Source of the DNA: Neophaeotheca triangularis
Taxonomy: Eukaryota
Reading direction: 5' to 3'
Assembly: GCA_054600435.1 (NCBI GenBank)
Contig: BAAIJX010000028.1
Span: forward strand, 124,001-188,000
DNA: 64,000 nt
Below, piece after piece: positions 32,262 to 60,881 of this stretch (position 1 is the stretch's first letter; each line of letters begins with the position of its first letter). Made by a program: the position numbers and the translations under genes. A model generated the notes under the pieces. The model did not search any database. It was not told where the DNA came from and saw only the letters and a list, made by a program, of their open reading frames with translations.

Positions 32262-35208
32262 TCAAGGGCGAGGCCAAGTAGCAGCATCACAGCTCAATTC
32301 CTCAAAACGGTGCAAAACATTACAACCCATGGCACTGAGGCTTTCGTTGCTGTTGCTGTCAATCTACATCCTGTCAGTCAAGTGTCCGGCGGAAAAACCC
32401 GTGCCACAGCCTACTCACTTGATCCAACAGACACGCACTATACCCTTGCTGCTTAAGCTGCCTCATACTCATTAGAACCAACCCTCGCAACAAGGCCGAG
32501 TAGTGCTCCACGGACGGACTAATCACAGGCGCCGAGATGCCTCCAACAACTTCGCCTCCAGCCTCCTTCATACTGGGAACGAAACCAGCCAGTGTCGAGC
32601 GCGGGTGGAACAAGACGACCGTCCCAACGATTGCAGCGTCGGTCGGTCTCTTGGCGCGAATGATGCCGCTCGTGGGGTCCGCCAACACCAGCTTATACAA
32701 CTCAACAAGGTCCGGCCGCTTGCTCGCCTCGATATGTTCAAGCAGCTTTCCCGCGTCGTCGGGGCCGTAGACGAGATCAAAAGCAACCTTGAGACCCTGG
32801 AGACTGCTCACGGTGCCTTCGGGCGGTGTCCAAGTCGAGAGTCCGGGCGCTAGCATACTGCAAACGGGCCGTGGTTTCGCTGTGGTCCAGCCGCGGTTCG
32901 CGAACCAAGATTGGAGTTGCTCGCGCTCGTTGTTGGTCGGGAGGCCGGGGAAGATGCCCGGGAGTTTTGAGCCGAGCTGGAGATGCTGGATGTTTTCCCT
33001 TTGTAGCAAGGCTCTTATAGCGCGAGCGTGAAGAGAATGGCCGATTGAGAGCCTTCGTCGTCCTGGGTCGACGAAGATGGCTCCGATGACACCTGTGCCG
33101 CCGTCGTTACTTGAGGTGAAGAAGTAGGTCGAGCAGAAACCGTAGACTGCTTGCGTCGTACTGTTCCGTACGACGAAGTGAGACTCGAGGACGTTTGGAT
33201 TCTTGAGGAGGAAGGAATGCGATGTTGCCCCTGACAAACCAAACTGGCCACGCGTACTGATCACTGTCTGGATCAGCATGTCTAGTCCACGCGAATCCCG
33301 GTCCTCGTTGTACGGCTCTACTAGCCAGTGCTGTCTCGACGTCGAAGGCTTCCGACTTTGGCTCTTACGACGGCCCTGGCTCAGGCTCAGGCTTCGCATG
33401 GTGCCTGGCAAGGTTCCGATAGGCGTAACCTCTCCGTAGAGGACTTTGACCAGGGATGCCAAGGCGGCCTCCGTAAAGTCGTAAGTGCAGACGTACGTCC
33501 CGATGGTCGACTGATCGAGAGCGAAATCGTAAGGTGAGCTTACAGAAATCACGACCAGCGGCTTCTCACGCTTTTGGCCGCCGGCTGTGTTGTTGCAAAT
33601 CATCGAAACATGCTTGGTAAACCCGTTTTGATAGAGGTTGCGGTTGGAATCGGCAGTGACTACGACTACCGCTTTCGCGCGATTGATGAGGTTTTCGTGC
33701 TGTGGCCGGATGCCCGTGGCGGTGTAAGAAGTATGCAGCACTCTACCACGCTGCCGAGCGAGCGATCGGCCTAGTTCACGGAATACGCGCTCGCCGCTCA
33801 TTAGGGAAGAGTTGCCATCTGGGGGATCTGAGGGGAGTTGCGCGGATGCGGTGGAGGCTACCAACGGATTTACCAGAGGCGTGAGTAATAGAAGCTCATC
33901 TTGTTGCTGAATGACGTTGGACAACGGCAGCAGTCGATTCTTGTCGCGGACCACGGTAATAGACGAGTCATATGCTTTGCTGGAGAGCCTCCTGTGTGAC
34001 GGCTGCAGCTGGGACAACAGACGAGTACCACCCTTGGGTAAGTGAAGGGCCTTTTCCCAGTCGGTGCGCTTGCTTTTCATGGCAAGAACCCTTTCCAGCG
34101 ACTGTTCCACACGCTGACTAGTGATGATGCCGTTCTCAAGACCAAGTTTGAGTCCCTCAATAGCCTCTTGTTGATGGGCAAAAGAGCGGCATAACAGGAC
34201 GATATCACAACCAGCGTTAATTGCCATTACAGTGCCGCCGCCCACGCCAATATTGTGACTAAGCGCCTCCATCTCTAGACAATCCGAGACAACGACGCCC
34301 TTGAACTTGAGATCGTTTCTTAAAAGATCGTGAACGACTTGCTCGGATAGGCAGGCGTGCATTACGTTCAACCCAGTTGATGACATGGCACAGCCGCCGA
34401 CCAACACTGCGTCTAGTCCCTCTTTAATAGCATTGCGGAACGGGACTAGAGCATTGAGCTTGAGTTGTTCTAAGCTGTCGGTAATTGTTGGCACGTCAAG
34501 AGAACAACCGAGAAAGCCTAGGCTACCATAGGACGGGAAGTGTTTGCCCATCGCGGCGACTCCAGCCTTGTGATAACCCTTCATGCTCGCTACACCGTAC
34601 GAGGAGACTTCCTTTGGGTCGTCCCCCGCAGTACGGACGCCTAGGGGCTGACTGCGAGCATTCGCCGTTAGTACGTCCAAGCAGGGTCCCATCATGAGAT
34701 TAATGCCACACGCGGAAACCTCCTCGCCAGTGGCCTTGGAAACTTCGTGAGTCAACTCTAGAGACCCGGTAGCTGCTAAGCCCATGGCAGAAGGATACTG
34801 CCCGATAAAGTCGTCGAACAAGCTGTTCACGCCACCGTTTTCCTGGTCAATACTGATGGCCAGTGGTACTGGATGGCCAGCATCGTAGGCTGTTTTCTGT
34901 AGATCGTAAACAAGCTGGGTAGTTTCTTCGGCCGCTGAGGATGGTCAGTGGCGAACTCGACCGCCTTGGAAAGCACATACATTTCATATTCTTTGCGCTC
35001 AGAAGTATAGACCCGATGTGGTGTTCTTGGATCAGCTTCCGTATTTGGGGGGTGACCGAGTTGCCTTGAAATCCCATCTATATGAAGCATTCAAAGTCAG
35101 AAGCAGGCGAGTATACGCAAAGCCAGGACTATATAGACTCGCCATGAACAGTTGCCCAAGTTTCCTATCCATATCCGACCACAAATGGTTTCCGCTGTCG
35201 AACGCCAT
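32262..35208 (-). CDS. nag3: GH3 beta-N-acetylglucosaminidase-like domain fused to GNAT domain(s) (Nag3 / Ngs1 type)
   Basis: LGQLFM|MGF, IDQENGGV, KHFPSYG, SDCLEM, then GNAT-like IGAIFVDPGRRRLSIGHSL; 4 exons, last one ending ...WPRP*; lies in the GlcNAc cluster. Confidence 0.9.
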
Positions 35209-36098
35209 GACTGCGCGGAGTAGCAATGACTGACGTCTTCGGTGTGGTAAAGTTCAAGAATTTGCAACAAGAACGAAAGCAGAGACGACCTCGACAGCGA
35301 CAGGAGTCGGTGTTGGCAGCCTACCTGAGTGACCTTACTACGGGTGAGTCGTGCATCCCACACATTATTATTGCGAATGTACCTTACCGGGAATACCGGA
35401 GGTACTGTACCTAACCACTTTGTATCTACTTTATTAGTCGTTAAATCACCTGAATATTAGTAGTAGTAGGTAGTGCTTCGTGATGTGGGTGCAGGTGTTA
35501 AGCCGCAAGTGTGGATGGTGGGCGCCTGCATAGAAAAGATTTCTGAATCGCAAGAGCCCGAGCAAGAACCCACTCTCCACCTAAGTTAGAATAGGTAGGA
35601 TTAGCTCACGATAAGCCAAGCCAAGTAGAAGTAACGTACGTGACAAACACACGTTGCAGTCGATGGTCACGATAAGCATTCATTATTAATTACAGACATA
35701 CGCGATGTAACCCTGATAAGCATTCTATCCTGGAGTTGCAGCTTGCCTGGCACTTCTTCTTTCTCGACGACCAGTTGAGCCGCAATAATAATGTAGTAAC
35801 GTAGCAGTGCCACCATTCCAACGTCAACGCTGATGCTTTGCGATGCAGTGGCATGGTACTCTCGTAGATGGTCAGAAGACGCCGGCATACCGACAACTAA
35901 GTACGGTGACATGTCTAAGGTATTGCCGCTTAGTGACTGATGATCTTCATGTACCTCTTCGATTTCAACTAGATTCCTTTCTTCTCACCAGCACCGCCTT
36001 GCCTTTGGAACGATATTGACAGTCTCCTCAACCTTCGACATTCGCTTGCCTTGCCAGCAACATAGCCAAAAGCTTCATAGAGAGCTCACCACATCAAC

Positions 36099-37433
36099 AT
36101 GCCCATGGCAGTTTCTCCCGAACGGTCTACGGATCACGACAAAACTGGCATCACCAAATTCACTGGAGCTCGCCTTGTCAAAGGCGACAGATTGGTTGAG
36201 GAGGACCTCTGGATCAGCTCGGTGACTGGCAAGATTCTCGACATGCAAGAACTCTTCTACGAACACCAACTCATGCCGGACCAAGTCATCGATCTCAAAG
36301 GCAAACTCCTAGCGCCAGGTTTCATGGACGTTCAATTCAACGGTGCCTTTGGTTTTGACTTTTCTACAATTCCAGAGGACATGGCGACATATCACAAAGG
36401 CTTGAAGCATCTTAATCAACAATTAGTCAAGACTGGTGTCACCAGCTACCTGCCAACTATCCCTAGTCAAGGACCTGAGGTCTACCACAAAGCTTTGAAA
36501 TTTCTAGGACCGTCTGGAGCTGGCAGACGTGCTGCAGATGGTTCGGAGTCTTTGGGTGCGCATTGCGAAGGGCCATTCATTTCCCCAACCAAGTCTGGTA
36601 TACATAGCCATTCCGTGCTACAGGAAGCCCCAAACGGTTTCGCGGATTTGGAAGCTTGCTATGGCGTCGAAAACCTGCCGCCCCCCGGCAAAGACAATGC
36701 CCAATCTCCCATAAGCATGATCACCGCCGCTCCCGAAGTCCCTGGTATCTCCTCAGCAATACCCGAGCTCACAGCACGCGGCATTCGGTTCTCGCTTGGT
36801 CACTCGGAAGCAACGTACGAGCAAGGCAGCGAGGCAATTCACGCAGGTGCGACGATGATCACGCATCTTTTCAACGCCATGCGGCCCCTACACCACCGCA
36901 ATCCGGGACTCTTTGGCGTGTTGGGCAAAGCAGAAGGCGCCAACCGTCCTTACTACGGGGTAATCGCGGATGGTATCCACCTGCATCCGACCTCGGTCAA
37001 GATAGCGTGGGCGGCGCATCCGGCCGGTTTCATCCTCGTCACCGATGCGATGAAGACGGTCGGTCTGCCTGACGGTGTATATAACTGGACCAACGGCGAC
37101 AGTTTCGTGAAAAAGGGATCGCTGCTCACGTTGGAAGGCACGGACAAAATTGCCGGTAGCTCGGCTTCATTGATCGAGTGCGTTAGTAACTTTTGGAATT
37201 GGAGCCATGCTACCATACCAGAAGTCATCAGAGCTGTCACGGCAACTCCTGCGCAGATGCTTGGTTTGGAAGGAGTCAAAGGAACGTTGGAGCCAGGGGC
37301 GGACGCGGATTTGCTTGTGCTGGACAAGGAAACGGATGGCAGTGGCGAGAGGAAGCTTAGCGTCGATCAGGTTTGGAAGTTTGGGGCTTTGGTTCATGGG
37401 AGGTCGGGTGATGGTAGTGCCGACGATGTATGA
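36099..37433 (+). CDS. dac1: N-acetylglucosamine-6-phosphate deacetylase
   Basis: APGFMDVQFNG, GAHCEGPFIS, GHSEA, THLFNAM, IADGIH, LVTDAM, KIAGS; single exon of 444 aa. Confidence 0.96.
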   Translation: MPMAVSPERSTDHDKTGITKFTGARLVKGDRLVEEDLWISSVTGKILDMQELFYEHQLMPDQVIDLKGKLLAPGFMDVQFNGAFGFDFSTIPEDMATYHKGLKHLNQQLVKTGVTSYLPTIPSQGPEVYHKALKFLGPSGAGRRAADGSESLGAHCEGPFISPTKSGIHSHSVLQEAPNGFADLEACYGVENLPPPGKDNAQSPISMITAAPEVPGISSAIPELTARGIRFSLGHSEATYEQGSEAIHAGATMITHLFNAMRPLHHRNPGLFGVLGKAEGANRPYYGVIADGIHLHPTSVKIAWAAHPAGFILVTDAMKTVGLPDGVYNWTNGDSFVKKGSLLTLEGTDKIAGSSASLIECVSNFWNWSHATIPEVIRAVTATPAQMLGLEGVKGTLEPGADADLLVLDKETDGSGERKLSVDQVWKFGALVHGRSGDGSADDV

Positions 37434-38025: not shown

Positions 38026-39356
38026 CTACAGCGAGTCCACACGCTCGTGTATGTTCGTAAGCGGTACATCCCCCGGCTCCAGACCATGCAAGTGATTCTC
38101 GACTCCAGCCTTGGCGGGCAGTCTCTCGTGCATCGCGTCCGGAATCAGCTCCGGAGTCGTGGATCGAGCAATCTGGGGCTCGGGGATGGTGAGAGATTTC
38201 AACGGACTGGGACCCGCCGAGGTCGGTGTCTTGGGGCTACTGCTCTTCGGGCTGTCGAGTTCTTGCAGCACCGAGTCGCGCTTGCGGAGAGTGAATTCTT
38301 TCGTCGCAAGCGATTGCCCGAATCCTTGGGATGTGGCCACTTGTTCGATTGATTTGAAGTACTGGATTTTGGTGAGTTGAGGGTTAGTCACTGGGCTTGT
38401 GAGGAAAGTGCGGGCGGCCATGGGCATACTTTTACGGTCTTGACTTTAAGTTCTAGCGTTGCGTCCTCGTCCACGACCATCAGAGCGTGGGGGTGCATTT
38501 GCAGACTCGACAGCGTCCACATGTGGTTGACACCTTCTTCCACGCATTTCTTCAACGCGAGAGCTTTGTGCGCGCCCGAGATGACAATCACCACCTCTCG
38601 TGCCTGATTAAAGGGGTCAGTGATCGATCCGGCATCTTCAACAGACTGAGTAACAACTCACATCCATGACGGTCTCCACACCAACGGTCAGCGCCATCTT
38701 TGGTACCTTGGCAAGGTCATTGTCGAAAAACCTCGAATTTGCCAACATGGTGTCGTAGGCAAGGGTCTTGACTCTGGTTCTACTCCTCATGCTGCTTCCG
38801 GGCTCGTTAAAAGCTATGTGGCCATCCGGGCCAATCCCGCCCAGGAACAGCTCGATACCGCCAGCCCGACGGATCTTCTCCTCGTAGGCGATACATTCGG
38901 CTTCCAAATCTGGCGCGTTGCCGTTCAGGATGTTGATGTTGGCCGGGTTGACGTCGACGTGGCAGAAGAAGTGCGTGTACATGAAGGAGTGGTATGACTC
39001 AGGGTGCTCGCGAGGAATACCGACGTACTCGTCCATGTTGAAAGTGACGACATTGCGGAATGAGATGCGGTGGTCCTTGTATGCGGCGACGAGGTGCTTG
39101 TAGACCGGCTCAGGGGAGCTACCGGTTGGAAGTCCGAGAACAAAAGGCTTGCTTGGAGTCGGTTCATAAGAGTTGATACGGTCTTTTGGTCCGTCAGTAT
39201 TATAGTCGTTATGGTTTACGATCAAAGTTTCCTACCTATGATGTAGTCGGCGATGTACTTGGCGGCATTGGCCTTGTCGTCTCGGATGATGAGTCTCCTG
39301 CTATTCGTCAATACAAGACTTTAATCTCATCGTGTGTCGGCTCATTGATCCTACAT
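38026..39356 (-). CDS. dam1: Glucosamine-6-phosphate deaminase
   Basis: MRLIIRDD..., [35 protein letters not shown]; 5 exons with the ATG split by the first intron; Ser/Pro-rich C-terminal tail. Confidence 0.96.
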
Positions 39357-40664: not shown

Positions 40665-42402
40665 ATGTCCGACACTTCGGTTGGCAAGGTCGACAAAGGG
40701 TCCGAATCGTACGAGATGCGTTCACCCTCCCGTGAATCAAACAAACCTACCCAGGCGGTTCGTCCAGCAGGATGGAAGTACAAAGACTTCAAGCTCGGTC
40801 CCATAACTATACCTTACTATGCAAGTCCTCAAGCCCAGCTACTGTTGGTCTCGCTGGTCTGTTTCCTTTGCCCGGGTAGGTTTCAGTCGATGCAAAGATA
40901 ACCCTGCAACGAATCATAACTGACTTGTGACTCTACAGGCATGTTCAACGCCGTCAACGGTCTAGGCGGTGGCGGTCAGGTCGATCCCGAAGCCAGTACC
41001 GCCTCAAATACCGCACTCTATGCAACCTTTGCCGTAGTTGGCTTCTTCGCCGGGACCATTGCCAACAAGCTAGGAATCCGCTATTCCCTGGCTTTTGGTG
41101 GTTGTGGCTACAGCTTGTATGTCGCATCATACCTTAGCTACAACATCAACCAAAACTTTGGCTTCGTCGTGTTTTCCGGCTTCTTCCTAGGATGCTGTGC
41201 GGGTGTATTCTGGAGCGCTCAAGGAGCTATCATGATGTCCTACCCTCCTGAGGGCGCCAAAGGCCGATATATTGCCGTCTTCTGGGTCAATTTCAACATG
41301 GGTGGAGTGATCGGCAGTTTGGTTAGTTTCCCACTTATGCTTCCTCCTGAGCTGAGGACTCGAGGAGTAAGACCACTAACATCGGCTCGACAGGTTCCTC
41401 TCGGCCAAAACATCAACACTACTACCGACTCCACGGTCTCCAACGGGACTTATATCGGATTTATTGCGCTCAGCGCTGTCGGAGCGGCCCTGGCCTTTAC
41501 CCTTTGCGATGCCCAAAACGTGATTCGCTACGACTGCTCGAAGGTTATTGTAGCGAAGAACCCAACCTGGAAGAGCGAGCTTCTTGGGCTCTGGGAGACC
41601 ATTCAGACCGATCCTTATGTCGTTTTCCTCTTCCCCATGTTCTTTGCGAGCAACTACTTCTACACGTATCAATTCAACGACGTTAACCTCGCGCAGTTCA
41701 ATACCCGTACTCGGGCATTGAACAACGTCATCTACTGGCTTGCGCAAATGATCGGGGCGACTATTTTCGGATATTTGCTCGATGCTGGGCAGGTTCGCAG
41801 AAGCATTCGCGCACGAATCGCATGGGTTGCTTTGTTCGTCCTCAGTTTCGCCATCTGGGGCGGTGGCTATGCATTCCAGAGAGGTTATACTCGGGAGGAG
41901 GTCGCTCAGGAGGGATACGAGAAGATGGACTGGAGTTCGTCCGGTTTCATCGGGCCCCACTTCCTTTACCTTTTCTACGGCTTCTTTGACGCCGTATGGC
42001 AGACTATGGTCTACTGGTAAGTCGACGCTTCATCCCCAAAGTTTTTCCAACTTTTCAAATTTTTCGAAAAAGGGCTTAGCCTCTAACTTTCTCTCCAGGT
42101 TCATGGGAGCCATGACGAACAACAGCCGCAAGCTGGCCAACTTCGCCGGCTTCTACAAGGGCATCCAGTCAGCAGGAGCGGCAATCATCTGGCGCCTAGA
42201 TGGCCTCGACAACCCGCCTCCGTACATGAATCTCTTCGCTTCGTGTTGGGCCTTGCTCACCGGGAGCTTGTTGATCGCTCTCCCCGTCATCATCATCAAG
42301 ATCAAAGATCATGCTGATGAGGAACAGGATCTTGAGTTTGCGGGAGAGAAGGCTGAGGATGTGAAGCCGACGACTCTTAAGAATAATGATTCGGAGGCTT
42401 GA
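40665..42402 (+). CDS. ngt1: N-acetylglucosamine transporter (UNC-93-like / DUF895 MFS)
   Basis: CFLCPG|MFNAVNGLGGGG, WSAQGAIMMSYP, FASNYFYTYQFN, RTRALN, AGFYKGIQSAG; the substrate is inferred from cluster context. Confidence 0.88.
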
Positions 42403-43247: not shown

Positions 43248-45091
43248 CTAGCAGTCCGGGAAGCTAAGATCCAATCGAATAGAAGGCTGCCCAGTAAAGT
43301 CCGCCGGGAGCGTATACGTGAAATTGTAAAATTCGAAATCGCTATCGGACGAGAGGGGTCAGCAGACGCCTTGACATGACATGCTTTTCCTGGAAAGACC
43401 ACTGTACTCACTGTATCGGGTCACTCGCACCACCATACATGCCGGCGAAGGTCAAGTTCATCTCCATCTCCGGGTAGGTGGTGACGGTGACACTGAGCCC
43501 TTCGGCGCCTTCCCAGCCGGAGATGGTAGGGTTTCCTGTCGGAGGCGACAGCATCAGGGTGAAGATGGAGGAAGCGTTACCACGGGGGTATGTGAGGTTC
43601 AGACCCATTGGCGAGACTTTGGCGTCAAGGGCGGATTCGGTGGCGTAGTACTGCGTTGATGTTCGGTTATTCTACTGCTTGAATTCGAGGTGGAGCGATG
43701 TCTTGGGAGCTTACCACGAGGTATCCGATCTCCGAGGACTGCGCATCGAGCCATTGAATCACGGCGGGGCTCCACGATCCAGGAGCGAGTGAAGTACCAC
43801 CAATTACATCCTGATCGAACGAGACGCCGCCGATGCTGATGTTCTCGCTCATCCATGTTGTGTAGTTGCGAAGGGCGTAGTCGTAGGGAGGCGAGAAGGC
43901 TGAAATCTCGAATGTATGCTCCCCTTGGAAGTACTGGAGCTTTTCCATGACATCGGGTGTGACGAAAGCTTCCTGGTCCCTCGACAAGATAGCCATCAAA
44001 GGGCCTAGAGAGAAATCGGAAGCATGTGACATGAGTTCGGGCTTGGTCACTGATCAGCGCTGTTTGAGATGATGGACTATGTCGCCTTCGCAGCATACCT
44101 TCTCGTAGACGGATGACTTTTCTTTACCAACGAGCACCCACAACCAACCAGCCATGGCGGCGAAGTACTTGTTCATATCGTACCCATACGACCTGTCCCA
44201 TGGACCGGCAATGTTCTTCATACGGGGGTTCCACAGTTCGCCGACCGCTTCGTAAGTTTTCTGGGCCATGCGCTTCCCGTTCTGCTTCATCACAGAGTCC
44301 GCGGGCAGATACTTGTCCCAGAGCGTGAGAGCAAACAGTGAGATGCCATTATAAGTAGGACCGTTGAACTCTGAAAGAGCGTCGGTCATGTTGAAGAGCG
44401 TTATGACCTCGTTGGCATCGTGTTCTCCCGCCCGGGTCATGTTGGAGTCGCCCAGCCGGCGGCCAGTCCAGCCGGAGACAAAAGCACGCATGAGGGAGGG
44501 ATTCGTGTAGGCCGGATAGAGGTTGTCGCCGTCGACGCCTCCGACGCGGTACGAGTCTCCTACCGTAGCGTTGTACAACGACTCCAGCATAAGACCCTGA
44601 AGCTCGTCGCTAAGAAGATGAGAGTACTCTTCCAAGCCGATGATAAACGCAGTTCCGACAAAGCCTCTCCAGTTCGGATCCCAGCTGGAATACATCTCGG
44701 CAGGGTAGATTGGACTGCCTACCCTTGGCTCCTCTGGTTGTTTCTGGTAAGTGGCATACCATTGATCGGCTGGGTCCTTGTATTGGCCGTGAATGACGTT
44801 GGAGATGGCCCTTTCGGCGTCTTGCACATCGTGGCCTTGGTTGCGTGCAAGCAACCCAATCGCATACCAGGAAGACGTTCTTGTGTCATGCCGCATGGCC
44901 GCGGGCTCGTTCAGATTGAAAAGGTAGCCTGCCTCCGGATCCCAATGATTATCCAGATACGCCATGGACTCGGTGAATAGGGAACAAGCATTCTCGGAGA
45001 ACGCTTCGGGGCAAGTTGTATGGGCATGGGCATGGGCATGAGAGCCCCAAACTGCTGCAGCGCACAGAATAGTCTCTAGATTCAGCTTCAT
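43248..45091 (-). CDS. Secreted protein of unknown function (about 550 aa), 4 exons, embedded in the GlcNAc cluster
   Basis: Signal peptide; motifs HDTRTSSWYAIGLLARN, WDPNWRGF, NLYPAYTNP, SEFNGPTY and GPWDRSYGYDM; GT-AG introns at about 44098-44042, 43714-43651 and 43411-43342 give an open frame ending SFPDC*. Confidence 0.85.
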
Positions 45092-45679
45092 GTCGATTGA
45101 TTTGTAACGGATAAACTTCTTCCATACTCCTGTGTGGAATGGGAGAGCTTCTTGTATTCATTCGATGCACTGTAGTTATATCCTGTTTTCTCCACTTCTC
45201 CACTTCCCTACATGTCTTTCAGTGTCGGCTGGATGCGAACCCCGCTCGTCCTGATAGCGAATGGGAGTACTGTTCGACATCCGTACTACCTTGGTATGAT
45301 CTATCTCCTCCGCCCCCAGGCTGTCCTTACTGCAACTTGCGTGGGCATAGAGGCCGGGTTTTTCGAAGATGCGTTCTACTCTGCCTCTTGAGTACCTAGG
45401 TAGTCGTGGTATAAAAGACCTCAGCTGCTTAATCACGCCCGGGACAAGATGATTGCGAAAGGTTTGGGAATAGTACTTGAATGATAATCATCCCGCCAGG
45501 CTGATATTACTGCGACGAGTTTACACCACAACAGGTGAAGAGGACGGGAGGAGCAGGCGGGAATAGTACGGAGGTAGGAAGTGGAGTATGGCGGGTATCC
45601 CCGTTCCTAGCGGTCGTTTATGCTACAAGACACAGCCCTTTGCATATCTTGCATAGACGTGCCGTCCGCTTATCAAAAA

Positions 45680-45745
45680 CTACCTAGGTAGGGTTAACTT
45701 ACTAGTACTAGTAGGAGGTAGGTGGACATGTAACGTTAACGTTAC
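45680..45745. promoter_or_regulatory. Cluster of three perfect palindromes in a divergent promoter; function inferred
   Basis: CTACCTAGGTAG (45680-45691), TACTAGTACTAGTA (45700-45713), GTAACGTTAACGTTAC (45730-45745). Confidence 0.5.
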
Positions 45746-46368
45746 GTTGATGTAACATACTGTATACCATGTCAGGTCAGCCTGGTATCAATTCACCGTA
45801 ACACTGCAGATACTACCTCCAGCCGTCCACAAGACTTACAATTGATTATTGCCTTACCCTCTCTGCAGCTGCATACATACATGCAACGCCATATCCACAA
45901 TACATCGATCCGCTCTGGCAAACGTGCGGTCCCTGGCGTCTTGTGCCTTGTCCACCATCAAAGGGCTAGGTAGCCGTTACGCCGAGATTTCTTCGACGAA
46001 TTGGTTTCTCGCAGAGTAGTCAGGCGTTCGAGGCACCTTCAATGAAACCTCAAGCTCGCCAGACCACTGGGAAACTGTCGACACGATGACCGGCTCCAAT
46101 GCCAACCCGCCATGAGCGTAGCAGTTTCACCCATCTCCACTGCCCTTACCTGGCTCCAACTGTTGTGTAGTGCCGGCTCTAGTAATTGCGAGTCACTGTC
46201 TACGAACCCTGCTGTCTTTTAATGCTTTCAGTACCGTCGCCGAGTGCAAAGCTTTGTAGCCTGTTGTTGGAGAATTGACGAGGCCCCCTACAATACTACA
46301 ACAACTCCAACAATACCAACAATACCGCTTCTGCTATTCCATTCTCTTCTCACCTCAATATACCCCCA

Positions 46369-47967
46369 ATGGCGTCAGTCGGTCGCTACTGCCTGTCCCT
46401 CCTCGTGGACTTCTGGACATTCCCGAAACTGGGCCAAGCAATAGCTATGGCGGCCATCCTTTCCTCCATGATCCACGTGATACGGCCAGACCTGGAATTG
46501 CCGCGAAAACATCACCGGCAATCACTCGATCGAAAGGGCAAACAAAGCCTCGAAGATTTCGCAGCCGAGGTGCGCGAGCTCTTCGAACGACCTCTACATC
46601 GCCAGAGTCTCCTGGCCATCTCGAAGGAGATCCGGGCGGAATACGCTGCTAAGCTGCAATGTCCTTCGTCGATCTCCATGCTTCCTTCCTACCAACATAC
46701 GCTACCTACCGGCCGGGAGCAAGGTGATTTTCTCGCCTTGGACGTCGGGGGCTCTACTTTCCGGATCGCTTTGATCAGATTGCAAGGCTGGGAGGAAGGG
46801 GGCGGAGGCGGAGGCGGGTCGGCGCAGATTATGCGCATCCGTGCCTTTGCCATTGACAAAGATGTTCGTAATTTGAAAGGAGGGGAGTTCTTCGATTGGA
46901 TGGCCCATCGGATAGGAGACATAATTGCCGAGTACGGTTCCGTCAAAGGGAAAGAAGAGACATTGGCTATGGGAATGGCATGGTCTTTCCCGCTGGAGCA
47001 GACATCGCAGCGTAGTGGAAAAATCTTGCCCATGGGGAAAGGGTTTCGAGCCACCGATGGTGTCGAGGGTGAGGATCTCGGCGAGCTCATCATGGAATCG
47101 TGCAAGCGACAAGGTCTCAATGTGGAAATGAAGTCGATTGTAAACGATAGCTCGGCGACACTGTTGTCGCAAGCTTATCGGGATCCTACCACCAGGATAT
47201 CGCTCATCCTCGGCACCGGAACGAATGCAGCAGTCTACTTACCTACCTCTGCGTTGGCAGCAAACAAGTTCGGAGAGAGACCGGACAGCTGGCGCGCCGC
47301 TGCAAAACATGTCGTGGTCAACACCGAGATGAGCATGTTCGGGAGACATGCTTTGACTTTCACGCGGTGGGACGATGAGCTGAACACCAAACATCCCTTG
47401 CCCAATTTCCAACCATTGGAGTATCTGGCAACCGGCAGATATCTTGGCGAGATTGTTCGACTCATCCTGTTGGAGGCAATCACCAAAGCCGAGCTTTTCG
47501 GCGGAGAAATGCCCAAGAGCCTCGAGGAGCCTTACGGCCTGGATACTCGCATCCTTGCCATCTTCGAAAGCGACAAGTCTCCGACAATGACAAACGCCAT
47601 GTCCGCATGGCAAGCGGCGCATCCGCTCCGCTCAAGGCCTGGTTTGGCCGACCTCAACTTCATTCGGAGCATCAGTCGACTGGTTTCCAGAAGGGCTGCC
47701 GCTTACCTTGCATCCGCTCTCCATGCGCTTTGGTGTCTGAGAACGGAAGCCGAGGGCTTGGAACCGGGAGAGGCCACCCACGTCACTATTGCCTGCAACG
47801 GAACTATAGTTGAAAAGTATCCTCGATTTCGCTCGTGTTGTCAAGAATACCTCGACGATCTTTGCGTGCTGTCTGGAGCTAGCAAGGGCGCCGTCACACT
47901 AGAAATGGCCCCGGAGAGCTCGATCTTGGGCGCTGCTGTAGCCGTGGCTAGTATGGAGGGGACCTGA
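46369..47967 (+). CDS. hxk3: Hexokinase-family N-acetylglucosamine kinase
   Basis: SMLPSY, LALDVGGSTFRI, WSFP, MGKGF, VNDSSA, ILGTGTNA, VNTE, GRYLGE, SSILGAA; the substrate is inferred from cluster context. Confidence 0.92.
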   Translation: MASVGRYCLSLLVDFWTFPKLGQAIAMAAILSSMIHVIRPDLELPRKHHRQSLDRKGKQSLEDFAAEVRELFERPLHRQSLLAISKEIRAEYAAKLQCPSSISMLPSYQHTLPTGREQGDFLALDVGGSTFRIALIRLQGWEEGGGGGGGSAQIMRIRAFAIDKDVRNLKGGEFFDWMAHRIGDIIAEYGSVKGKEETLAMGMAWSFPLEQTSQRSGKILPMGKGFRATDGVEGEDLGELIMESCKRQGLNVEMKSIVNDSSATLLSQAYRDPTTRISLILGTGTNAAVYLPTSALAANKFGERPDSWRAAAKHVVVNTEMSMFGRHALTFTRWDDELNTKHPLPNFQPLEYLATGRYLGEIVRLILLEAITKAELFGGEMPKSLEEPYGLDTRILAIFESDKSPTMTNAMSAWQAAHPLRSRPGLADLNFIRSISRLVSRRAAAYLASALHALWCLRTEAEGLEPGEATHVTIACNGTIVEKYPRFRSCCQEYLDDLCVLSGASKGAVTLEMAPESSILGAAVAVASMEGT

Positions 47968-48360: not shown

Positions 48361-50011
48361 TCAAAACACGCCCTCGCTGAAATAACGCTTATTCCGCGTG
48401 CCTTTTAAGCTTGTCCTTGGGTCGTTTGGATCCGTGGACAGCTTCCGGTGATGTACAAAGTGTGGCCTGTATACTGCGTCATCGGGCGGTTGCCAGTCGT
48501 CCAGTCCCAGCGGAAAGTATTCGTACACTTGCCCGGCGTCCTCGTCAGGGCTGTTGACACTGTTCAAGGACAGAGATAATCGGCGAGGCGGAATATGCAA
48601 TCTCTTAGCAGGCGGGGATGCGTCGATGGTATTGCTGGCTGTCGGCGAGACATTCTCATCGAGGGAGAGATTGATTGGGGCTGTAGACGGAGTCGGTTCA
48701 GGCATACTGGAACGTGAAACTTCGGACTGAGAGTTGCGAGAGTTGGCAGCTCTAAAACCTTCCCCCTGACTGATGTTGGCGACATGTTGATCTGCGCTCA
48801 CACTATGGCGGTCAGAACGAGCACTACTCGCAATGGACTCCTGAACATGTAGAGAAGCACGCTGGACAGGCACGTTTTGCGCCGGAGACTCTGAAGTAAG
48901 ATCAATGACCGAAGTAGTGACACTGTCTCGCCCCTTGGTCAAGTCTGGAACGGCGATTCGACCAGACTGTGCTGCGAGCTGAGACGCTGTTCTGACATGT
49001 CCACTTCCATTGAGGGGCAGATCTTTCCGAGACTGGAAGTTTCTCGGACTTCGACCTCTGACAACAATTGCTCCGGATTGGACTTGACAAATGGGAACCT
49101 TGTAACCTGTTGCCAACGTAGCCATCACCTGTAGTCTCACGACAAAATGCTGCTGTAATTCTTTGCGCCTTCCATTGTGAGCCGTCGCGGTACGGAATTG
49201 AAGACGTTCCCAGCGAAAGGGAAAAGTCGCGAAATCCGAGTCGACATGCGACGCACTCAAGGGGTTAAGAGGTATCGCTGCCGGCTCTCGCTCAGCCTTA
49301 TCCTCGTGCGCTTTCCATGGCACTGAAATGACTCTGACTTCGGTTCCTTCTGTTGATTCTATCGCGCTAACAGCAAGCTCTTGCCCAATGATCGGGACTC
49401 CTCCGCCTTGCGCGGTCGAAATGTATTTCAGAGTCTTCGGTAGCGTTATTTCGCCAGTTACCTGAAAGAGGTTCCTCCGATAGCAAGTTAACTTCTTGGG
49501 CGGAGGCTGTAGAGACAACTCTCCTGCAGATACCCATGGAGATTCCGCAAGGAAGAACATTCCATGTAGTTGCGCCGTTAGAGCGATGGTAGTTCTTCGC
49601 TGCAAGGAGTCGTGTAATGCATAGTCAAAGGTTGGGGTGGTAAAGCTGAGTAACTTGTGATCTCGGTGGATAGAGGCTGTCTCAAGGTCATGCGCATCAT
49701 TGGGAGGCAATTCAGAGGCAGTAGCAGCGTCGGGAAATGGGTCTTTCAACGGAGGAAACGGATCTAGGGAGGGATTGCTGGTAGTCTGATACTGTGTCAT
49801 TCCCTGACGGTGAAGCTCGTTGCTCCTGGTATCGTTATTAGCGGGTTTGGGCCAGTACCCCACGGGCATGTTTGAAGACTGTGCAGAAGGTCTTGGTTGA
49901 GACCACGTACCCTAGAAGGCCGTAGTCCATAGGGAGCAGCATGTTCGCAAAGGGGTCTTCGTTAAGAACAGCGCTTGGATGCGCCGTTTGCGTAGTGGCC
50001 AAGTAATTCAT
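48361..50011 (-). CDS. ron1: NDT80/PhoG-family transcription factor (RON1/XprG type)
   Basis: AQLHGMFFLAE, LTCYRRNLFQV, WERLQFRTATAHNGRRKELQQHF, IVVRGRSPRNF, YEYFPLGLDDWQPP; probable first exon from ATG 50011 with an intron at about 49910-49827. Confidence 0.93.
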
Positions 50012-50196: not shown

Positions 50197-50566
50197 GATG
50201 GAATGGGATGGAATGGAGTAGTAGTAGGTTGGAGTTGAGTTAAAGTTGGGTATGAGTTGGAGTTGTAGTGGGGTTTGGCCCGTTTGGGATACCAAAGTTC
50301 ATCCCAAACTCTCGCCCTTAAACAGCCTTGGCAAGTATCATCGCGCGATAAAGGATGACTGACCTTTTCCCATGATCACATCAATGGCCCTTTGGGTTTA
50401 TGGAGGCGCGTCTGTATCAAAATCTGCTTATGCAACATGCGTCAAGCAGATGGCCAAAGGAATTCAAACATTCTTGACATGTCTTCGTTGGTGCTTGTCC
50501 CAGGCTGCTTTGATGACGACTCGACTGTAAATGGCAAAAAGAAGCAGCACCACCATCAGCACCACC

Positions 50567-53077
50567 ATGGCCTCTAGTGACACCTCGGCGAATGTACCAA
50601 TGCATGGCGACGCCGACTACCAACCGCATAACATCCGCCTGGCCTGCCAAGCATGTCAGCGGAGGAAGATCAAATGCGATCGCACTTTTCCATGTGGCCA
50701 GTGCCAGCGATCTCATCTGACTTGCGAGTCAAGTAGCCGCAAGCAGCGGGCGCGAAAGGTCAATCGACAGGCCGTCGACTCTCATTTAAAGGACCGCATA
50801 GCAAAGCTCGAGGCGCTCGTCGAGGCGCTGAGTGGCGAGGTCGACTGCCAGGACAAGGACAGCGCCGTCTCTCCAACAACAGATGATGGATCGACGACAA
50901 GCCCTACAATTTCCCCGCGCGCGCTCGCCCAGCGGTACATAGGGAGCGACTTCTGGGCGGACATTTGTTTTGAGGTTCAATCACTTCGCGATGCGCTCGA
51001 GGAAGATGGGTCCGAGGACGAGCAAGACTCCTATTCGGCCACGTCAGACAGCCAGCAGCAAGAGTTTGGCCTCTTCGTTTCTCCCCCTGGAATTGTCCAT
51101 GTCATGCCCGGGGCGATACAAGAGCCAACGTCACAGCAAGTCGGTTACCTATGCGACGCATATTGTGCGAATGTGGACAGGGTGTTGAAATTTTGCTACG
51201 CTCCTATGCTCCGCGATTTCCTGAAGCGAGGCGCACCGTACCTTGGATTGGATGCTCTTGCGCCGTCGAATAGGGCATTAAAAAGCGCCGTCTGCTTTGC
51301 CGCTCTGACGAGTTGGTCTGACAAGGATGTTCGATCGGTTTTTGGAGTATCAAAACAGGAGCAGATGAGCCTGTTCCGGCGATGGGTGGATGTCTCATTC
51401 GCCCAAGTCGATTTATTCAACACGAGTGATCTTGCTGCCGTACAGGCAATGACTGCATACGCGGTAAATAAAATTACTACACAGCTCCCAATATCTCCCG
51501 ACTAACAAACGCCACAGGCTACGGCTAAGATGTTCGACACGACTCGCAGACCCTGGACCATGTTGGCGTTGATTGTACGTATTGCGCGAGCGATGAATCT
51601 ACACCACGAGGCCAGCACGGCTTCCCCATTTATCAGAGAACTGCGACACCGCCTCTGGCACACTATCCGATTCCTCGATCTATACCACTCCATGGACAGG
51701 GGCAGCGAGCTCATGATCAGCGCCAACTCATACACCACACCACCACCTTGCAGCATCGACGACGCAGACTTCGGCCCAGAGTCGACGCATCTCACACCCC
51801 GAGAAGGCTTGACAGAGATATGCGTCCTTAATACCGCCCAAGCCGCCGTTTCAGCTCTCGAGCAACTCTCCCAAAACCCCCCACCAATCCGCAAAGGCGT
51901 GGACATCTGGCAAGAGCGACTCGACCTCGCGAAAAGAACGGGCGAATGGATCGAGCGTAACATTCTCCAGTACTGCGACCCGAACGACCCTTGGGAGCGC
52001 ACCGTCATCGGCCTGGGAATGGCCATGAGCAAATCCACAATCCTCCGGGCCGTCCGGCCCGTAGCCCGCCCGTATCAACTCGCCTCTTCACCCCCACGCG
52101 TCGAAAGCCCCTGGCTTTTGCGATTCGCGACGGACTCTTTGCGCTCCACGCGTATCGTCTACGAAGAGACGCAGACGAGATGGAACTGGATGGTCTGGGT
52201 GCCGTGGTACACGCTTGCCGTGGCTCTGGCGGGCTTATGCGCGATCCGAGACACCGAAGCGAGTAGGCAAGCTTGGCTTGAGGTCGAAGTCGCGTATCAG
52301 CGGTACCCCAGGCATATTGCCGACGGCGAGGGCGGCATGCTATGGCGGCCGATCCAGAAACTGTATCGACGGGCTGCCGCCTTTAGGGATGAAACGGATA
52401 CAAACGCGATGACGAGCACTGATCTGGCAACTCTACAAAACCAAACCGCAGGGCCTCGGGCAGACTCATTGCGTCTGGGCGAGGACATTGACTATCCGAT
52501 GCAAGTTCAAGAGCAAGCGTACCAGCCCACACAACCGCATTCACAATCACAGCCTCAAGCGCAACAACTACAGCAAATACCGACCCAGCAACTACCTCAT
52601 CAACAACTCTTACACCAACAACTTCCACATCAACAACCTCCACACCAACAACTTCCACACCACCAACTACCTCACCACCAACTACCTCTCCACCAACTAT
52701 CTCACCACCCCCCACCGCCCCACCAACAACCCCCCCAGCAACCCCAAACGCACCCCTTCCCACACCCCCCAACAAACCCCCCAACCAACCCCAACGCCCA
52801 CGACCCAGCACCCCGCCCCCTCCCCCTCGACCCGACCACAACAACCTGGCTCACCCAACAACAACAACAACCCCAACCCCAACCCCCAGTGCTAAATTTC
52901 CCCCCCCTCCCCCTCAACTTCCAGCCCTTCGACCCCGCCGCCACTTCGGCAGCAGCGCCCAGTTGGTGGGATTGGGAGCAGATACTGGGGGAAGTGGATC
53001 ATCGCGCCGCGGAGATGTTTGGGGAGTCCACTGGCTTGGGGATGGGGATGGGGATGGGGAGGGGGGGAGGAGGGTAG
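50567..53077 (+). CDS. Zn(II)2Cys6 transcription factor with Fungal_trans region and Q/P/H-rich tail
   Basis: CQACQRRKIKCDRTFPCGQCQRSHLTC, RIARAMNLH...ELRHRLWHTIRFLD; one intron at about 51464-51517. Confidence 0.93.
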
Positions 53078-55577: not shown

Positions 55578-57828
55578 GGGAGGCTGTACAGCCTGCAAAA
55601 GATGGAGCCAACAGCTACAAATGGAAAGGCACAGACAGCGGCAGAAAGACCAAAGAAAAAACCGGGTACTCAGATCTGGCAAACCTTTCCGGCAAACCTT
55701 ATCAATGAAATGGCAGCCCAGTTCCAAAAGACAGCCCGCATGTGAGAGCCGCCGCGCAAGCGTCGTAATAATAACGTATCGAGAGGGTTTTGCATTATTT
55801 TTTTTTAAATGCATGTAGCGGAGTGGTTCGTACTATAGTAGGGCTTTTTTATCGGACTACTGTACGGTGTCGTGATGATACTACGGTAGTTGGTGTGGAC
55901 ATGATCGCGTGGATCTTAATTCTTGACAGGATGTTCACGGTGTCGCCGAAAGGAGACGGGACGTTGGAGAGGGAAATTTGCACCAGGGCGAGAATAGTGC
56001 AGAGGGCAAAAGGAAGAGGAGGAGGCTCTGCAGATTCTAGGGCATCAACACAACCGAATTGAATCGTGGGTAGTGACGATGGCCATAATCGCGGTATTCG
56101 TGTTAGCGGAGCAACGCGAAAACCATGGATCGAGGGTGTGTTGGCCGTGAGACGATGTCGTTGCCAACTGGGGGAAGAGATTAATGTTTACCTATTGCGA
56201 CGACTCGCGTACAGCAAGATGCCAAGCACGAGGAGAAGGGTAGAGCTTGTAACTTCAGGTTAGGTGGACGGAGATTATTCACAGAGGTAAGACGATGACC
56301 TCGATTAACTTATGGTGAGAGACGGAACCTCAGGTGAGAGCAAAAGTCGGATTCCCGCGGCGATGGCACGCGGTACACGGCGTCAGGCTTGGCTGGGATT
56401 TGCCCGGCAACGAGACGAGTACTTGGAACTTAGTACTACTTTCTGCACGTCAGGGGCAGCTCTCAGCCATGCCGTCCGGGCTGTCATCTCATCAACCGTT
56501 GGCTGGCTGGGTCCATCGCCCGGGTAACCTCCTATGGACTGCTTTTTTCAACATCAACCGTCGTGGCTGGTCGGAGGTCGGCAGCGATTCAGAAAGAAAG
56601 AAGAATAGAAGAGGACTCGTACTCCAAGATTGCACCCTCGTGATGCTTACCTAGCAGCCCTAATTATTACTATTAAAATTGTTATTATTATTATTATGAT
56701 TATTAACAGCTAGCGACTTTCATAGTTACTATGTATGCGCGCGCCTTGTCAAATCTGCGCGGTACGAGAAAGGTAAGACTGTTCGCAGGGGGCTAGCCTC
56801 TAGTAGGTAGGAGGTAGGGGGCCAGGGCAGGCCGTGTTACTAAAACTGGAAAAAGGTACTAGAATAATAAAATCTTAGCCGACTTGCGCTGCCTCTCGCC
56901 TCTCGCTTCATTGCCCGTTTCTCCCCACTGTTATCTGCTCCACCCTTCCATCATAGCAGTGGCGCACAACTCACACATCCTCGTTCAAGGTTTGGGGGTG
57001 CATAATTCACGGCCAATGGGAAAAGCCGGATCAATGCGAGTTTTCACCTCCTGTCCGTCGTTTTCTCTGGGGGTGATACTGTGATACAGCGATACCCGTG
57101 GACTCCATGCACGACGGTCGGCGTGGCAGCGTCATCGTCATCATCCCCCATCACCACGCCGACCGGTTACATCTCCATACAAGAAAGAGTAAAAGAATAT
57201 GTGATGGATTATGTAGCAGTCAAGGACTCTCGCTGTAGGGCGGGCAATAATGGCCATTCTTTCACGAACTAACCCTTCCTTTCCGTGGGGACTCGGGAAC
57301 AGCAATCTCTTCCCTCGCTTGCCAAAGATACCCGCGAACCGGCGGACCAGGAGCTGCACAGAAACGTTTCGACTTTTCCTAGCACACTCCGGCGCCAAGC
57401 TATATCTGGTTGAAGATCCACCGGCAGCCGCCGCTAGAGCAATAGGATGATGCAGGAACCCGCCGCTCCGAGGCCGCTGAGTCGTCGAAAGGAGAACAGG
57501 GCGGAGTCCAAGGTGTCGTTGCACAGGAAACTAAATAACCCATGCGCTCGACTCTTGTTGCCTGCCCGTTTTCCTCGTTCGCCCCTACCGTAACTACCTC
57601 ACCACCCTTTCCCGTGCCTTCCACTCTTCTTTTTTCTTCTAAATACCCGCCGACCGACCCTACGCTCACTTTTCTTCCTTTTCTTACTATCCCTACTTTA
57701 CCTACCTAACTTCTCCGTTAATACCACCTCCTCCCTCCAGACAAGCGCCGTCGTATAATAATCCACGTCTGCGCCTGCCTCGAGTCCTCTTTTTCCTTCC
57801 GCAGCATCATCTGCGATTAGTTGAAACC

Positions 57829-60417: not shown

Positions 60418-60881
60418 GCGACTCACCCGGTCAAGCCTCTTCTTTTCCTATGTCACTGTGTAAATCTCGCTACATATAGAAAGATGAGTGGAGGATAGAG
60501 CACATGTATAAGATGAGAAGAGGAAGTGCGTGGAGGAATGCATATGGATGGGAGAGGGACGATGGAACGAAGCATGTCCAAGACTTCCCTTTTTTCTCCC
60601 CAGAGCGAGCGAGCAATGCAAACACATTAGCTGCTGCTAGCTTCGTTTTGCATCTCTTATTTTTACCTTTTTTCTTATATATATTCTTCTTTAAACTGTT
60701 AGTGTAATCCTTCTTCACTTCTCACGTTTACCCTGCACATTGGTGGTGGGCGATGTACTTGTCTCCATTTACCTCATTTCCCTACCTACCTACCTACAGC
60801 CCTCAAAATGACAGCAAAACCCCACACTGCTACCTAGTGAGTGTGAAGCGTACACCCGTCCCCGATCGGTTGGTCGGTCGA

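Follow-up and report, generated by a model that had tools for sequence, protein, structure and literature searches.

A cluster of genes for the catabolism of N-acetylglucosamine (GlcNAc) in Neophaeotheca triangularis holds, between the ngt1 position and hxk3, a gene for a protein with a probable signal peptide, and this raises the question of what the protein does and whether it takes part in the pathway. The window analysed here is a stretch of 64,000 nucleotides (GenBank assembly GCA_054600435.1, contig BAAIJX010000028.1, positions 124,001 to 188,000 of the forward strand), in which the gene occupies positions 43248 to 45091 of the minus strand. A sequence-only reading of this DNA had proposed a secreted enzyme with an architecture like that of alpha/alpha-toroid lyases, which might release amino sugars for the pathway. 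Our analysis indicates that the protein probably represents an uncharacterised family of carbohydrate-active enzymes (CAZymes) acting on acidic glycans; the amino-sugar role is not supported.

The exon structure was obtained from stop-to-stop open reading frames (ORFs) and a reading of the minus strand, with the coordinates spliced by script. The gene has four exons encoding 550 amino acids, and its start and stop are exactly those given in the earlier reading. The spliced coding sequence comprises 1653 nt, i.e., 550 codons and a single terminal stop, and the three introns (57, 64, and 70 nt) all have GT..AG borders. Exon 1 found its best match in an NCBI hypothetical protein of N. triangularis itself (P0001; 478 amino acids, 100% identical over residues 43 to 519), with which introns 1 and 2 agree. 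This public model (isoform 't2') starts at M43, reads through the third donor, and ends with ..SDPIQ (window 43342-43411 and 44963-45091), so that the deposited protein is without the leader and the last 31 residues. Our reading of exon 4 is supported by full-length homologues, such as P0006 of Hortaea werneckii (..HDFEFYNFTYTLP..), and the homologues continue with HDFEFYNFTY... The five motifs quoted in the earlier reading were all present in the exon 1 translation (HDTRTSSWY, residues 68-76; WDPNWRGF, 137-144; YPAYTNP, 192-198; SEFNGPTY, 240-247; GPWDRSY, 296-302), and they fall on family-invariant columns. A hydrophobic stretch at residues 5 to 15, clear leaders in the homologues, and nine N-x-S/T sequons suggest that the protein is secreted, as had been claimed, and N-glycosylated. 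Directly after the predicted leader, an H-A-H-A-H-A-H repeat was observed (residues 18-24; 45020-45040, minus strand), which was not found in four inspected homologues.

The fold was modelled with AlphaFold2 on the H. werneckii orthologue P0006, which is 59.7% identical to the spliced protein, using an alignment of 45 sequences. The model (pLDDT 85.9, pTM 0.88) consists of 12 helices (residues 30-367) followed by a beta-sandwich (residues 373-547), in agreement with the helical N-terminal part and beta-rich C-terminus described earlier. In a Foldseek search of the whole model against PDB, toroid-plus-sandwich lyases ranked first, with BtPL33HA of polysaccharide lyase (PL) family 33 at the top (E 3e-8, TM 0.41-0.47), followed by chondroitinase, GAGases II and VII, PL8 hyaluronate lyases (E 5e-6, TMq 0.44-0.46), PL17, heparinase III of PL12 (4fnv; TMq 0.52), PL15, and dermatan-sulfate epimerase 1. 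With VIA, an aligner independent of Foldseek, dermatan-sulfate epimerase 1 was the best two-domain match (Z 14.6, 433 residues aligned), and chondroitinase (Z 13.7, 414 residues), GAGase II (Z 12.6, 419 residues), and PL17 (Z 11.8, 423 residues) came after it. For the C-terminal domain, a natural C-terminal fragment, P0149 (214 amino acids, pLDDT 90.4), was modelled and searched against 48,161 representative chains. The top rows were mostly lyase C-domains, including PL8 (8fnx; Z 7.7), chondroitinase ABC (7.3), chondroitinase 9o3q (7.2), PL33 (7.0), xanthan lyase (6.8), heparinase II (6.8), heparinase III (6.6), and PL40 ulvan lyase (5.9). As judged from these models, a lyase-like architecture, that is, an (alpha/alpha)6 toroid with a C-terminal beta-sandwich, is supported, as the sequence-only reading had supposed. 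The toroid alone gave VIA matches to 7tem, an uncharacterised exported protein (Z 17.1), and to a glycoside hydrolase family 15 (GH15)-like domain (9ju0; 16.2), a GH8 cellulase (1kwf; 15.9), chitosanases (15.3), cellobiose 2-epimerases (14-15), GH76 (14.9), beta-1,2-glucanases (14.2-14.8), and GH15 (~14). By itself, the modelled toroid does not separate lyase from hydrolase or epimerase.

Conserved residues were determined from 45 fungal and 39 bacterial sequences, with thresholds of at least 90% in fungi and at least 80% in bacteria; at conserved sites, the numbering of the N. triangularis protein equals that of P0006. We found 48 positions conserved in both groups, with four Arg, five Tyr, and four Asn among them. 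Those with polar residues are R71, Y76, R83, D88, Q103, D138, N140, R142, Y195, N197, E241, N243, T246, Y247, H288, N293, R300, Y302, D305, Y309, and D340. N140 and Y195 are invariant and lie 55 residues apart, with W as the residue after N140; in the sandwich, W428 is invariant and is preceded at 427 by Q in fungi and by H in bacteria. According to the secondary structure of the model, conserved residues lie at the N-termini of helices 2, 4, 6, 8, 10, and 11 or immediately ahead of them, and would thus sit where six-hairpin enzymes form their pocket. Four conserved Arg together with many Tyr and Asn suggest an anionic sugar. We propose that the protein would bind an acidic, uronic-acid-containing glycan or oligosaccharide in a central pocket of the toroid, which may be lined by residues that do not vary between bacteria and fungi and that stand where the inner helices begin (R71, R83, R142, R300, N140, N197, N243, Y76, Y195, Y247, Y302, D138, E241, D305, and D340), with the Q/H427-W428 pair contributed by the sandwich. 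Cleavage would then proceed by lyase-type beta-elimination or closely related chemistry.

Sequence searches placed the protein in a large family of its own. No Pfam family was matched by the three exon translations (E<=0.1), by the 45 fungal members (E<=1), or by 17 divergent members (E<=0.1), and two family profiles (A1 and A2) gave no significant match when run against the sequences of all PDB chains (best E 0.066; with the second profile, none at E<=10). A word-indexed search returned 610 proteins at E<=1e-3; the named matches among the best 120 were all from Pezizomycotina, and the full-length ones had ~540 amino acids. An exhaustive profile search gave 1347 representatives at E<=1e-3 (762 at <=1e-10 and 257 at <=1e-30), and members also occurred in smut fungi, a mucoromycete, Thermomicrobiales, and Promethearchaeia. 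In a prokaryote collection with one genome per species, 557 stretches were confirmed, distributed over Chloroflexota, Actinomycetota, Opitutaceae, Acidobacteriota, Latescibacterota, Trueperaceae, and Myxococcota. Among 39 bacterial representatives, 23 begin at most 12 residues before the first helix and are therefore without a leader, and ~11 have a hydrophobic leader. The automatic names of the relatives conflict with one another: 'Linalool dehydratase/isomerase domain', 'DUF1793-domain', 'Six-hairpin glycosidase-like', 'Polysaccharide lyase family 8' (as 'Polysaccharide lyase family 8 protein', the name of one 90%-cluster member), 'Alginate lyase domain', and 'alpha-L-fucosidase'. In the ESM Atlas, matches were confined to unnamed clusters of the family itself; among clusters bearing a Pfam domain, those with Ulvan_lyase_N came nearest, at 0.80 and 0.78, a level that amounts to no more than a lead.

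No characterised relative was found in Pfam, PDB, or the literature searched, which excluded most subscription journals. Nor did that literature contain a functional paper on YPO2471/7TEM; An01g00210 was absent from the supplement of PMC5617896, and the terms lyase, linalool, and six-hairpin were absent from that of PMC12176254, a source of RNA-seq tables for Trichoderma reesei. The family is one of known architecture, without a Pfam model, solved structure, or assay in the databases and literature searched. No Trichoderma homologue appeared among the best 120 matches of a Hypocreales query. The T. reesei id 111245, a 'PL8' candidate with a log2 fold change of 1.09 in a list of differentially expressed genes, was left unused because its membership in the family could not be shown. 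The Fusarium orthologue P0386 (FGSG_03545) is 'OrfH, unknown' beside the trichothecene cluster, another instance of a family gene adjoining an unrelated cluster; FGSG_03545 is mentioned once in PMC4198257.

We then compared the protein with the systems that it resembles. The toroid-plus-sandwich lyases (PL33, 8r6z; GAGases, 8khv; PL8, 1egu and 8fnx; PL12, 4fnv; PL21, 3e7j; PL15 and PL17) have the same domain order, with a C-terminal beta-supersandwich after the toroid. They rank best in the whole-model Foldseek search (E 3e-8 to 2e-4) and match the C-domain with Z of 5.9 to 7.7; for PL8 and PL33, the matches are of moderate strength. Conserved Asn, Tyr, and Arg at the N-termini of inner helices are a further likeness, as is the presence, in bacterial loci of the family, of GH88/105, KduI, and UxaC, enzymes that process lyase products. 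On the other hand, the family has no Pfam Hepar_II_III or Lyase_8 match, the TM-scores are 0.4 to 0.5, and the toroid is a complete six-hairpin barrel, closer to the GH barrels. The Pfam library used does detect Hepar_II_III_C in a neighbouring protein at a bacterial locus of the family (L047; 31.6 bits). No PL8 or PL33 chain of PDB was retrieved at E<=10 with profiles A1 and A2. Heparinase II/III-like lyases carry a catalytic Tyr/His and an Asn neutraliser in their cleft, and the catalytic Asn-His pair of the lyases would be Asn-Trp in the present family.

The (alpha/alpha)6 glycosidases (GH8 CelA and chitosanase, GH15, GH76, and GH144/162-like beta-1,2-glucanases), together with YPO2471 (7tem), superpose on the toroid over ~270 to 300 residues (Z 14-17, rmsd ~4 A; GH8 chains, Z 15.3-15.9 over 293-299 residues; other GH barrels, Z 13.5-16.2), yet their sequence identity is 4 to 11% and they are without this C-terminal sandwich in this position. 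Pfam Glyco_hydro_8 matched neither the exons nor the 45 fungal members. Linalool dehydratase/isomerase (Ldi) is a single-domain periplasmic terpene enzyme with an (alpha/alpha)6 barrel. Its name is attached automatically to many family members in UniRef, an annotation that the sequence-only reading had anticipated, yet no Pfam model matched the protein or 62 relatives, and no Ldi structure was among the fold-search rows listed for the whole model and the toroid. Since sequence comparison failed to link the protein with heparinase II/III, PL8/PL33, or Ldi and the resemblance in fold was found, the protein at best 'works like' a toroid-plus-sandwich lyase and is a member of none of these groups.

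Gene neighbourhoods in bacteria were examined at 80 loci. ORFs were called in 61 of them, and 219 ORFs, mainly the two neighbours on each side, were scanned with Pfam in 54 of those; a further 61 ORFs were scanned in selected loci, and informative neighbours were counted across all 80 by tblastn. The contexts are heterogeneous carbohydrate-utilisation loci with sugar ABC systems and LacI and GntR regulators, and in four Acidobacteria TonB-dependent receptors lie directly upstream of the family gene. A gene of the uronate/lyase pathway was found within 10 kb at 13 of the 80 loci, a raw count without a background rate: GH88/105 in 7, KduI in 3, UxaC in 2, GH28 in 1, and an adjacent heparinase II/III-like gene in 3. 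As a rough estimate, a GH88 gene is expected in ~1 to 2% of random 20-kb windows. Rhamnose genes occurred at 6 of the 80 loci (RhaA, 3; GH106-like rhamnosidase, 3), and a NagB-like gene at one (L049). A recurring Chloroflexota operon (L008, L023, L037, and L046) has the order family gene-GFO-GFO-(xylose-isomerase-like TIM)-(GH3)-FGGY kinase-GH88/105, with RhaA, GH28, or a class II aldolase in addition. It spans 10001 to 19858 in L023, and upstream of it L023 and L037 carry a gene for a hybrid sugar-sensing kinase/AraC regulator. In the Acidobacteria L063 and L070, the order is TonB outer membrane protein (OMP)-family gene-OMP-two GH88-KduI-IclR, with MFS-SDR-TIM-GFO upstream.

The heparinase II/III-like neighbours belong to three actinobacterial loci (L047, in the same ORF, L015, and L064) and were counted as adjacency only. 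An apparent fusion of 1274 amino acids in L015 was rejected, its C-terminal extension being Arg/Pro/Gly-rich out-of-frame text; the real heparinase-like gene follows immediately downstream in a different frame. The ORFs of L012, L066, L067, and L072 have N-terminal extensions, for which Pfam gave no match. At four related loci (L017, L021, L032, and L036, of which L017 and L032 are from Caldilineaceae), genes for Amidohydro_3 and DUF4037 proteins flank the family gene, and a 'putative cyclase' gene accompanies them in L021 and L032 (Pfam) and in L036 (tblastn).

Whether the gene is linked to GlcNAc genes elsewhere was examined in 80 fungal metagenome loci, which reduce to 58 distinct ones at 97% identity and may include paralogues; 14 of the distinct loci have flanks of at least 5 kb on both sides, and 24 on at least one side. 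The products of nag3, dac1, dam1, ngt1, hxk3, and ron1 of the window served as tblastn queries (E<=1e-8). The sole match in the 58 distinct loci was dam1 in L147, 3 kb upstream of the relative; hxk3, ngt1, ron1, dac1, and nag3 were found in none. The closest relatives (L083, L087, L104, L129, and L144; 60 to 69% identical), which are as close to the protein as the nearest named orthologues, had no cluster gene in their loci. Pfam scans of 129 flanking ORFs of 25 fungal loci revealed an amino-acid permease (L083, L087, and L147), MFS transporters, GH10, GH2, polymerase eta, and an AAA ATPase. The permease gene lies just upstream on the opposite strand (L083, 7354-8697; L087, 7628-9064; L147, 3996-5215), and in L147 it stands between the dam1-like gene and the family gene.

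Kappel et al. 2016 (PMC4950302) describe the cluster as hxk3, dac1, dam1, ngt1, nag3, and ron1, and report that single unrelated genes, judged unlikely to be involved, are interspersed among the cluster genes in certain species. The gene studied here is physically inside the cluster, yet it is not among the six members described there. Pfam and coordinates agree with the sequence-only reading that it lies between the ngt1 position and hxk3 and is divergent from the latter. Since linked cluster genes, dam1 in L147 apart, are missing from the fungal metagenome loci, the position is real but not conserved: among the 58 distinct loci, linkage was nearly unique to this genome. The place between ngt1 and hxk3 is probably a lineage-specific arrangement and not a conserved part of the GlcNAc pathway.

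We give about an even chance to the reading that the protein belongs to a new family of lyase-like CAZymes, is secreted, and acts on glycans that contain uronate, and that its position in the cluster is incidental. Several observations weigh against it. Many (alpha/alpha)6 hydrolases and epimerases fit the toroid alone equally well or even better, with none standing out; the C-domain matches all have Z<8 and are mixed with galactose mutarotases, and a Foldseek search restricted to that domain retrieved nothing at E<=1e-3. When profile A2 was aligned by hhalign with the adjacent heparinase II/III-like protein, the probability was 0.2, and this insignificant alignment sets DPNWR opposite NPHYH. 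The conserved Asn140 is without a following His, unlike the N-H motif of PL15, PL17, and PL21. A uronate or rhamnose context was seen at just 14 of the 80 bacterial loci, the others being heterogeneous, and this count, too, has no background rate. Besides, five of the 48 conserved positions carry a deviating residue in this protein (S244G, T248N, W280Y, H288N, and P359T), whose activity may therefore be altered or reduced; loss of function, which may have occurred in this protein, takes up what probability the readings weighed here leave over. Finally, the position is striking, with cluster genes on both sides and 1.3 kb of divergent intergenic DNA in common with hxk3.

This position also speaks for an accessory role of the enzyme in the GlcNAc catabolism of this lineage; GlcNAc and RON1 would then control a secreted product through a promoter that the gene has in common with hxk3. 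Such an enzyme might attack a glycan of GlcNAc and uronate (hyaluronan, heparosan, or chondroitin type), a microbial exopolysaccharide, or chitosan, with products feeding NGT1, HXK3, DAC1, and DAM1. The best whole-model matches are glycosaminoglycan lyases (BtPL33HA, GAGases, and PL8), whose substrates contain GlcNAc or N-acetylgalactosamine; the toroid matches include GH8 chitosanases (Z 15.3), and a gene of the glucosamine-6-phosphate deaminase family is near the relative in fungal L147 and bacterial L049. However, none of the 14 fungal loci with at least 5 kb on both sides has hxk3, ngt1, ron1, dac1, or nag3, dam1 occurs in 1 of 58, and in bacteria the NagB-like gene is seen in 1 of 80 loci versus 13 of 80 for uronate-pathway genes; interspersed unrelated genes are, moreover, documented for such clusters in PMC4950302. 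We therefore consider the accessory enzyme distinctly unlikely. The bolder version of the idea is a long shot: with this protein, a new polysaccharide lyase family, shared by most Pezizomycotina with hundreds of bacterial species, would have its first eukaryotic representative, and the GlcNAc regulon of an extremotolerant black fungus would have captured it for mining GlcNAc from acidic amino-sugar polymers. If true, it would be a nutrient route not described for fungal GlcNAc clusters, with hyaluronan-, heparosan-, or chondroitin-like polymers or exopolysaccharides as sources.

Two further explanations concern the chemistry. A new (alpha/alpha)6 glycoside hydrolase family, inverting or retaining and with an accessory C-terminal beta-sandwich, would employ two of D138, E241, D305, and D340 for hydrolysis and could be, e.g., a rhamnosidase, a glucuronidase, or an unsaturated-uronyl hydrolase in partnership with lyases. 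The top Z-scores of the toroid belong to glycosidase barrels and 7tem, the four acidic residues are conserved from bacteria to fungi, some relatives are automatically named 'Six-hairpin glycosidase', and the bacterial operons with rhamnose catabolic genes need a step that releases rhamnose. We nevertheless regard a hydrolase as unlikely: no toroid match rises above the rest, Z values of this size are frequent among helical repeats, and both the order of the two domains and the matches of the C-domain favour the lyase class; four conserved Arg with many Tyr and Asn also seem more typical of uronate-binding lyase sites. Very unlikely in our view is a protein that cleaves no glycan at all, whether an isomerase/hydratase, a uronate epimerase, a sugar epimerase of the AGE/cellobiose 2-epimerase type, or a non-catalytic binder. 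The name 'Linalool dehydratase/isomerase domain-containing' on many UniRef members would fit it, as would dermatan-sulfate epimerase 1 as the best two-domain VIA match and the cellobiose 2-epimerases at Z 14 to 15 on the toroid; GFO/IDH/MocA oxidoreductases and xylose-isomerase-like TIM barrels adjoin the family gene in at least eight bacterial loci, which hints at sugar-modifying rather than depolymerising chemistry. Against this, no Pfam family, including any Ldi model in the library, matched the 62 members scanned, and secreted fungal forms with nine sequons would better suit attack on an extracellular polymer. With H288 lost in this protein and Q at 427 in fungi, few His would be left for AGE-type catalysis.

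The features of the gene and its neighbours are collected below. By Pfam on the ORFs, the order in the window is nag3-dac1-dam1-ngt1-the present gene-hxk3-ron1, followed by a Zn2Cys6 factor.

Coordinates, in the window, of the gene, its exons and introns, and the neighbouring GlcNAc cluster genes
Feature	Position	Strand	Remarks
Complete coding sequence	43248..45091	-	4 exons, 550 amino acids, stop TAG 43250-43248
Exon 1	44099..45091	-	residues 1-331; leader and most of (alpha/alpha)6 toroid; all five quoted motifs
Probable signal peptide	45032..45091	-	~residues 1-20; hydropathy and homologue leaders
Intron 1	44042..44098	-	57 nt, GTATGC..AAG; junction YEK|PELMSH supported by P0001
Exon 2	43715..44041	-	residues 332-440; final helical hairpin and beta-sandwich start
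Intron 2	43651..43714	-	64 nt, GTAAGC..CAG; junction GYLV|YYATE supported by P0001
Exon 3	43412..43650	-	residues 441-519 and two bases
Intron 3	43342..43411	-	70 nt, GTGAGT..TAG; skipped in public gene model
Exon 4	43248..43341	-	last 31 residues and stop; final beta-strands
GH3 plus GNAT (nag3-type)	32374..34944	-	Glyco_hydro_3 E 5e-54; Acetyltransf_1 E 8e-5
Amidohydrolase (dac1)	36081..37433	+	Pfam
Glucosamine_iso (dam1)	38638..39231	-	Pfam
MFS/UNC-93-type transporter, ngt1 position	40941..42402	+	Pfam; convergent with the present gene; ngt1 label by position
Intergenic region to hxk3, divergent	45092..46368	.	candidate bidirectional promoter, 1.3 kb; from gene positions
Hexokinase (hxk3 position)	46369..47967	+	Hexokinase_1 E 2.5e-46, Hexokinase_2 E 1.5e-59; divergent from the present gene
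NDT80/PhoG-type regulator (ron1 position)	48361..49869	-	Pfam E 5.2e-35

The Ndt80-type middle sporulation element GNCRCAAAW has no match in the intergenic region shared with hxk3, and the window has 3 matches versus 9.0 expected. The GNAT domain on the GH3 gene of the cluster (32374-34944, minus strand) gives it the architecture of the GlcNAc sensor NGS1, which is named in the title of PMC5063960 and appears as TrNGS1 in PMC12176254; nag3 and ngs1 would be the same gene. A gene for a Zn2Cys6 transcription factor (Zn_clus and Fungal_trans, split over two ORFs; 50531-53077, plus strand) is divergent from ron1 and lies at the cluster's edge. Farther on, an ORF of 924 codons (57643-60417, plus strand) contains a tannase/feruloyl esterase domain (E 7e-71), and an overlapping ORF of 876 codons on the opposite strand (57817-60447, minus strand) had no Pfam match; G+C in this region reaches 0.61, with strong skew.

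For the GlcNAc field, these results are a caution, as location inside the cluster is insufficient for calling a gene a pathway member. The family is a very large one, present in most ascomycete moulds, among them the plant-pathogenic Fusarium (FGSG_03545), Botrytis, Verticillium, and Colletotrichum as well as industrial Aspergillus, and in many soil bacteria. The bacterial neighbourhoods, with GH88/105, KduI, UxaC, rhamnose, and heparinase-like genes, give a concrete substrate panel, and the family could define a new CAZy family.

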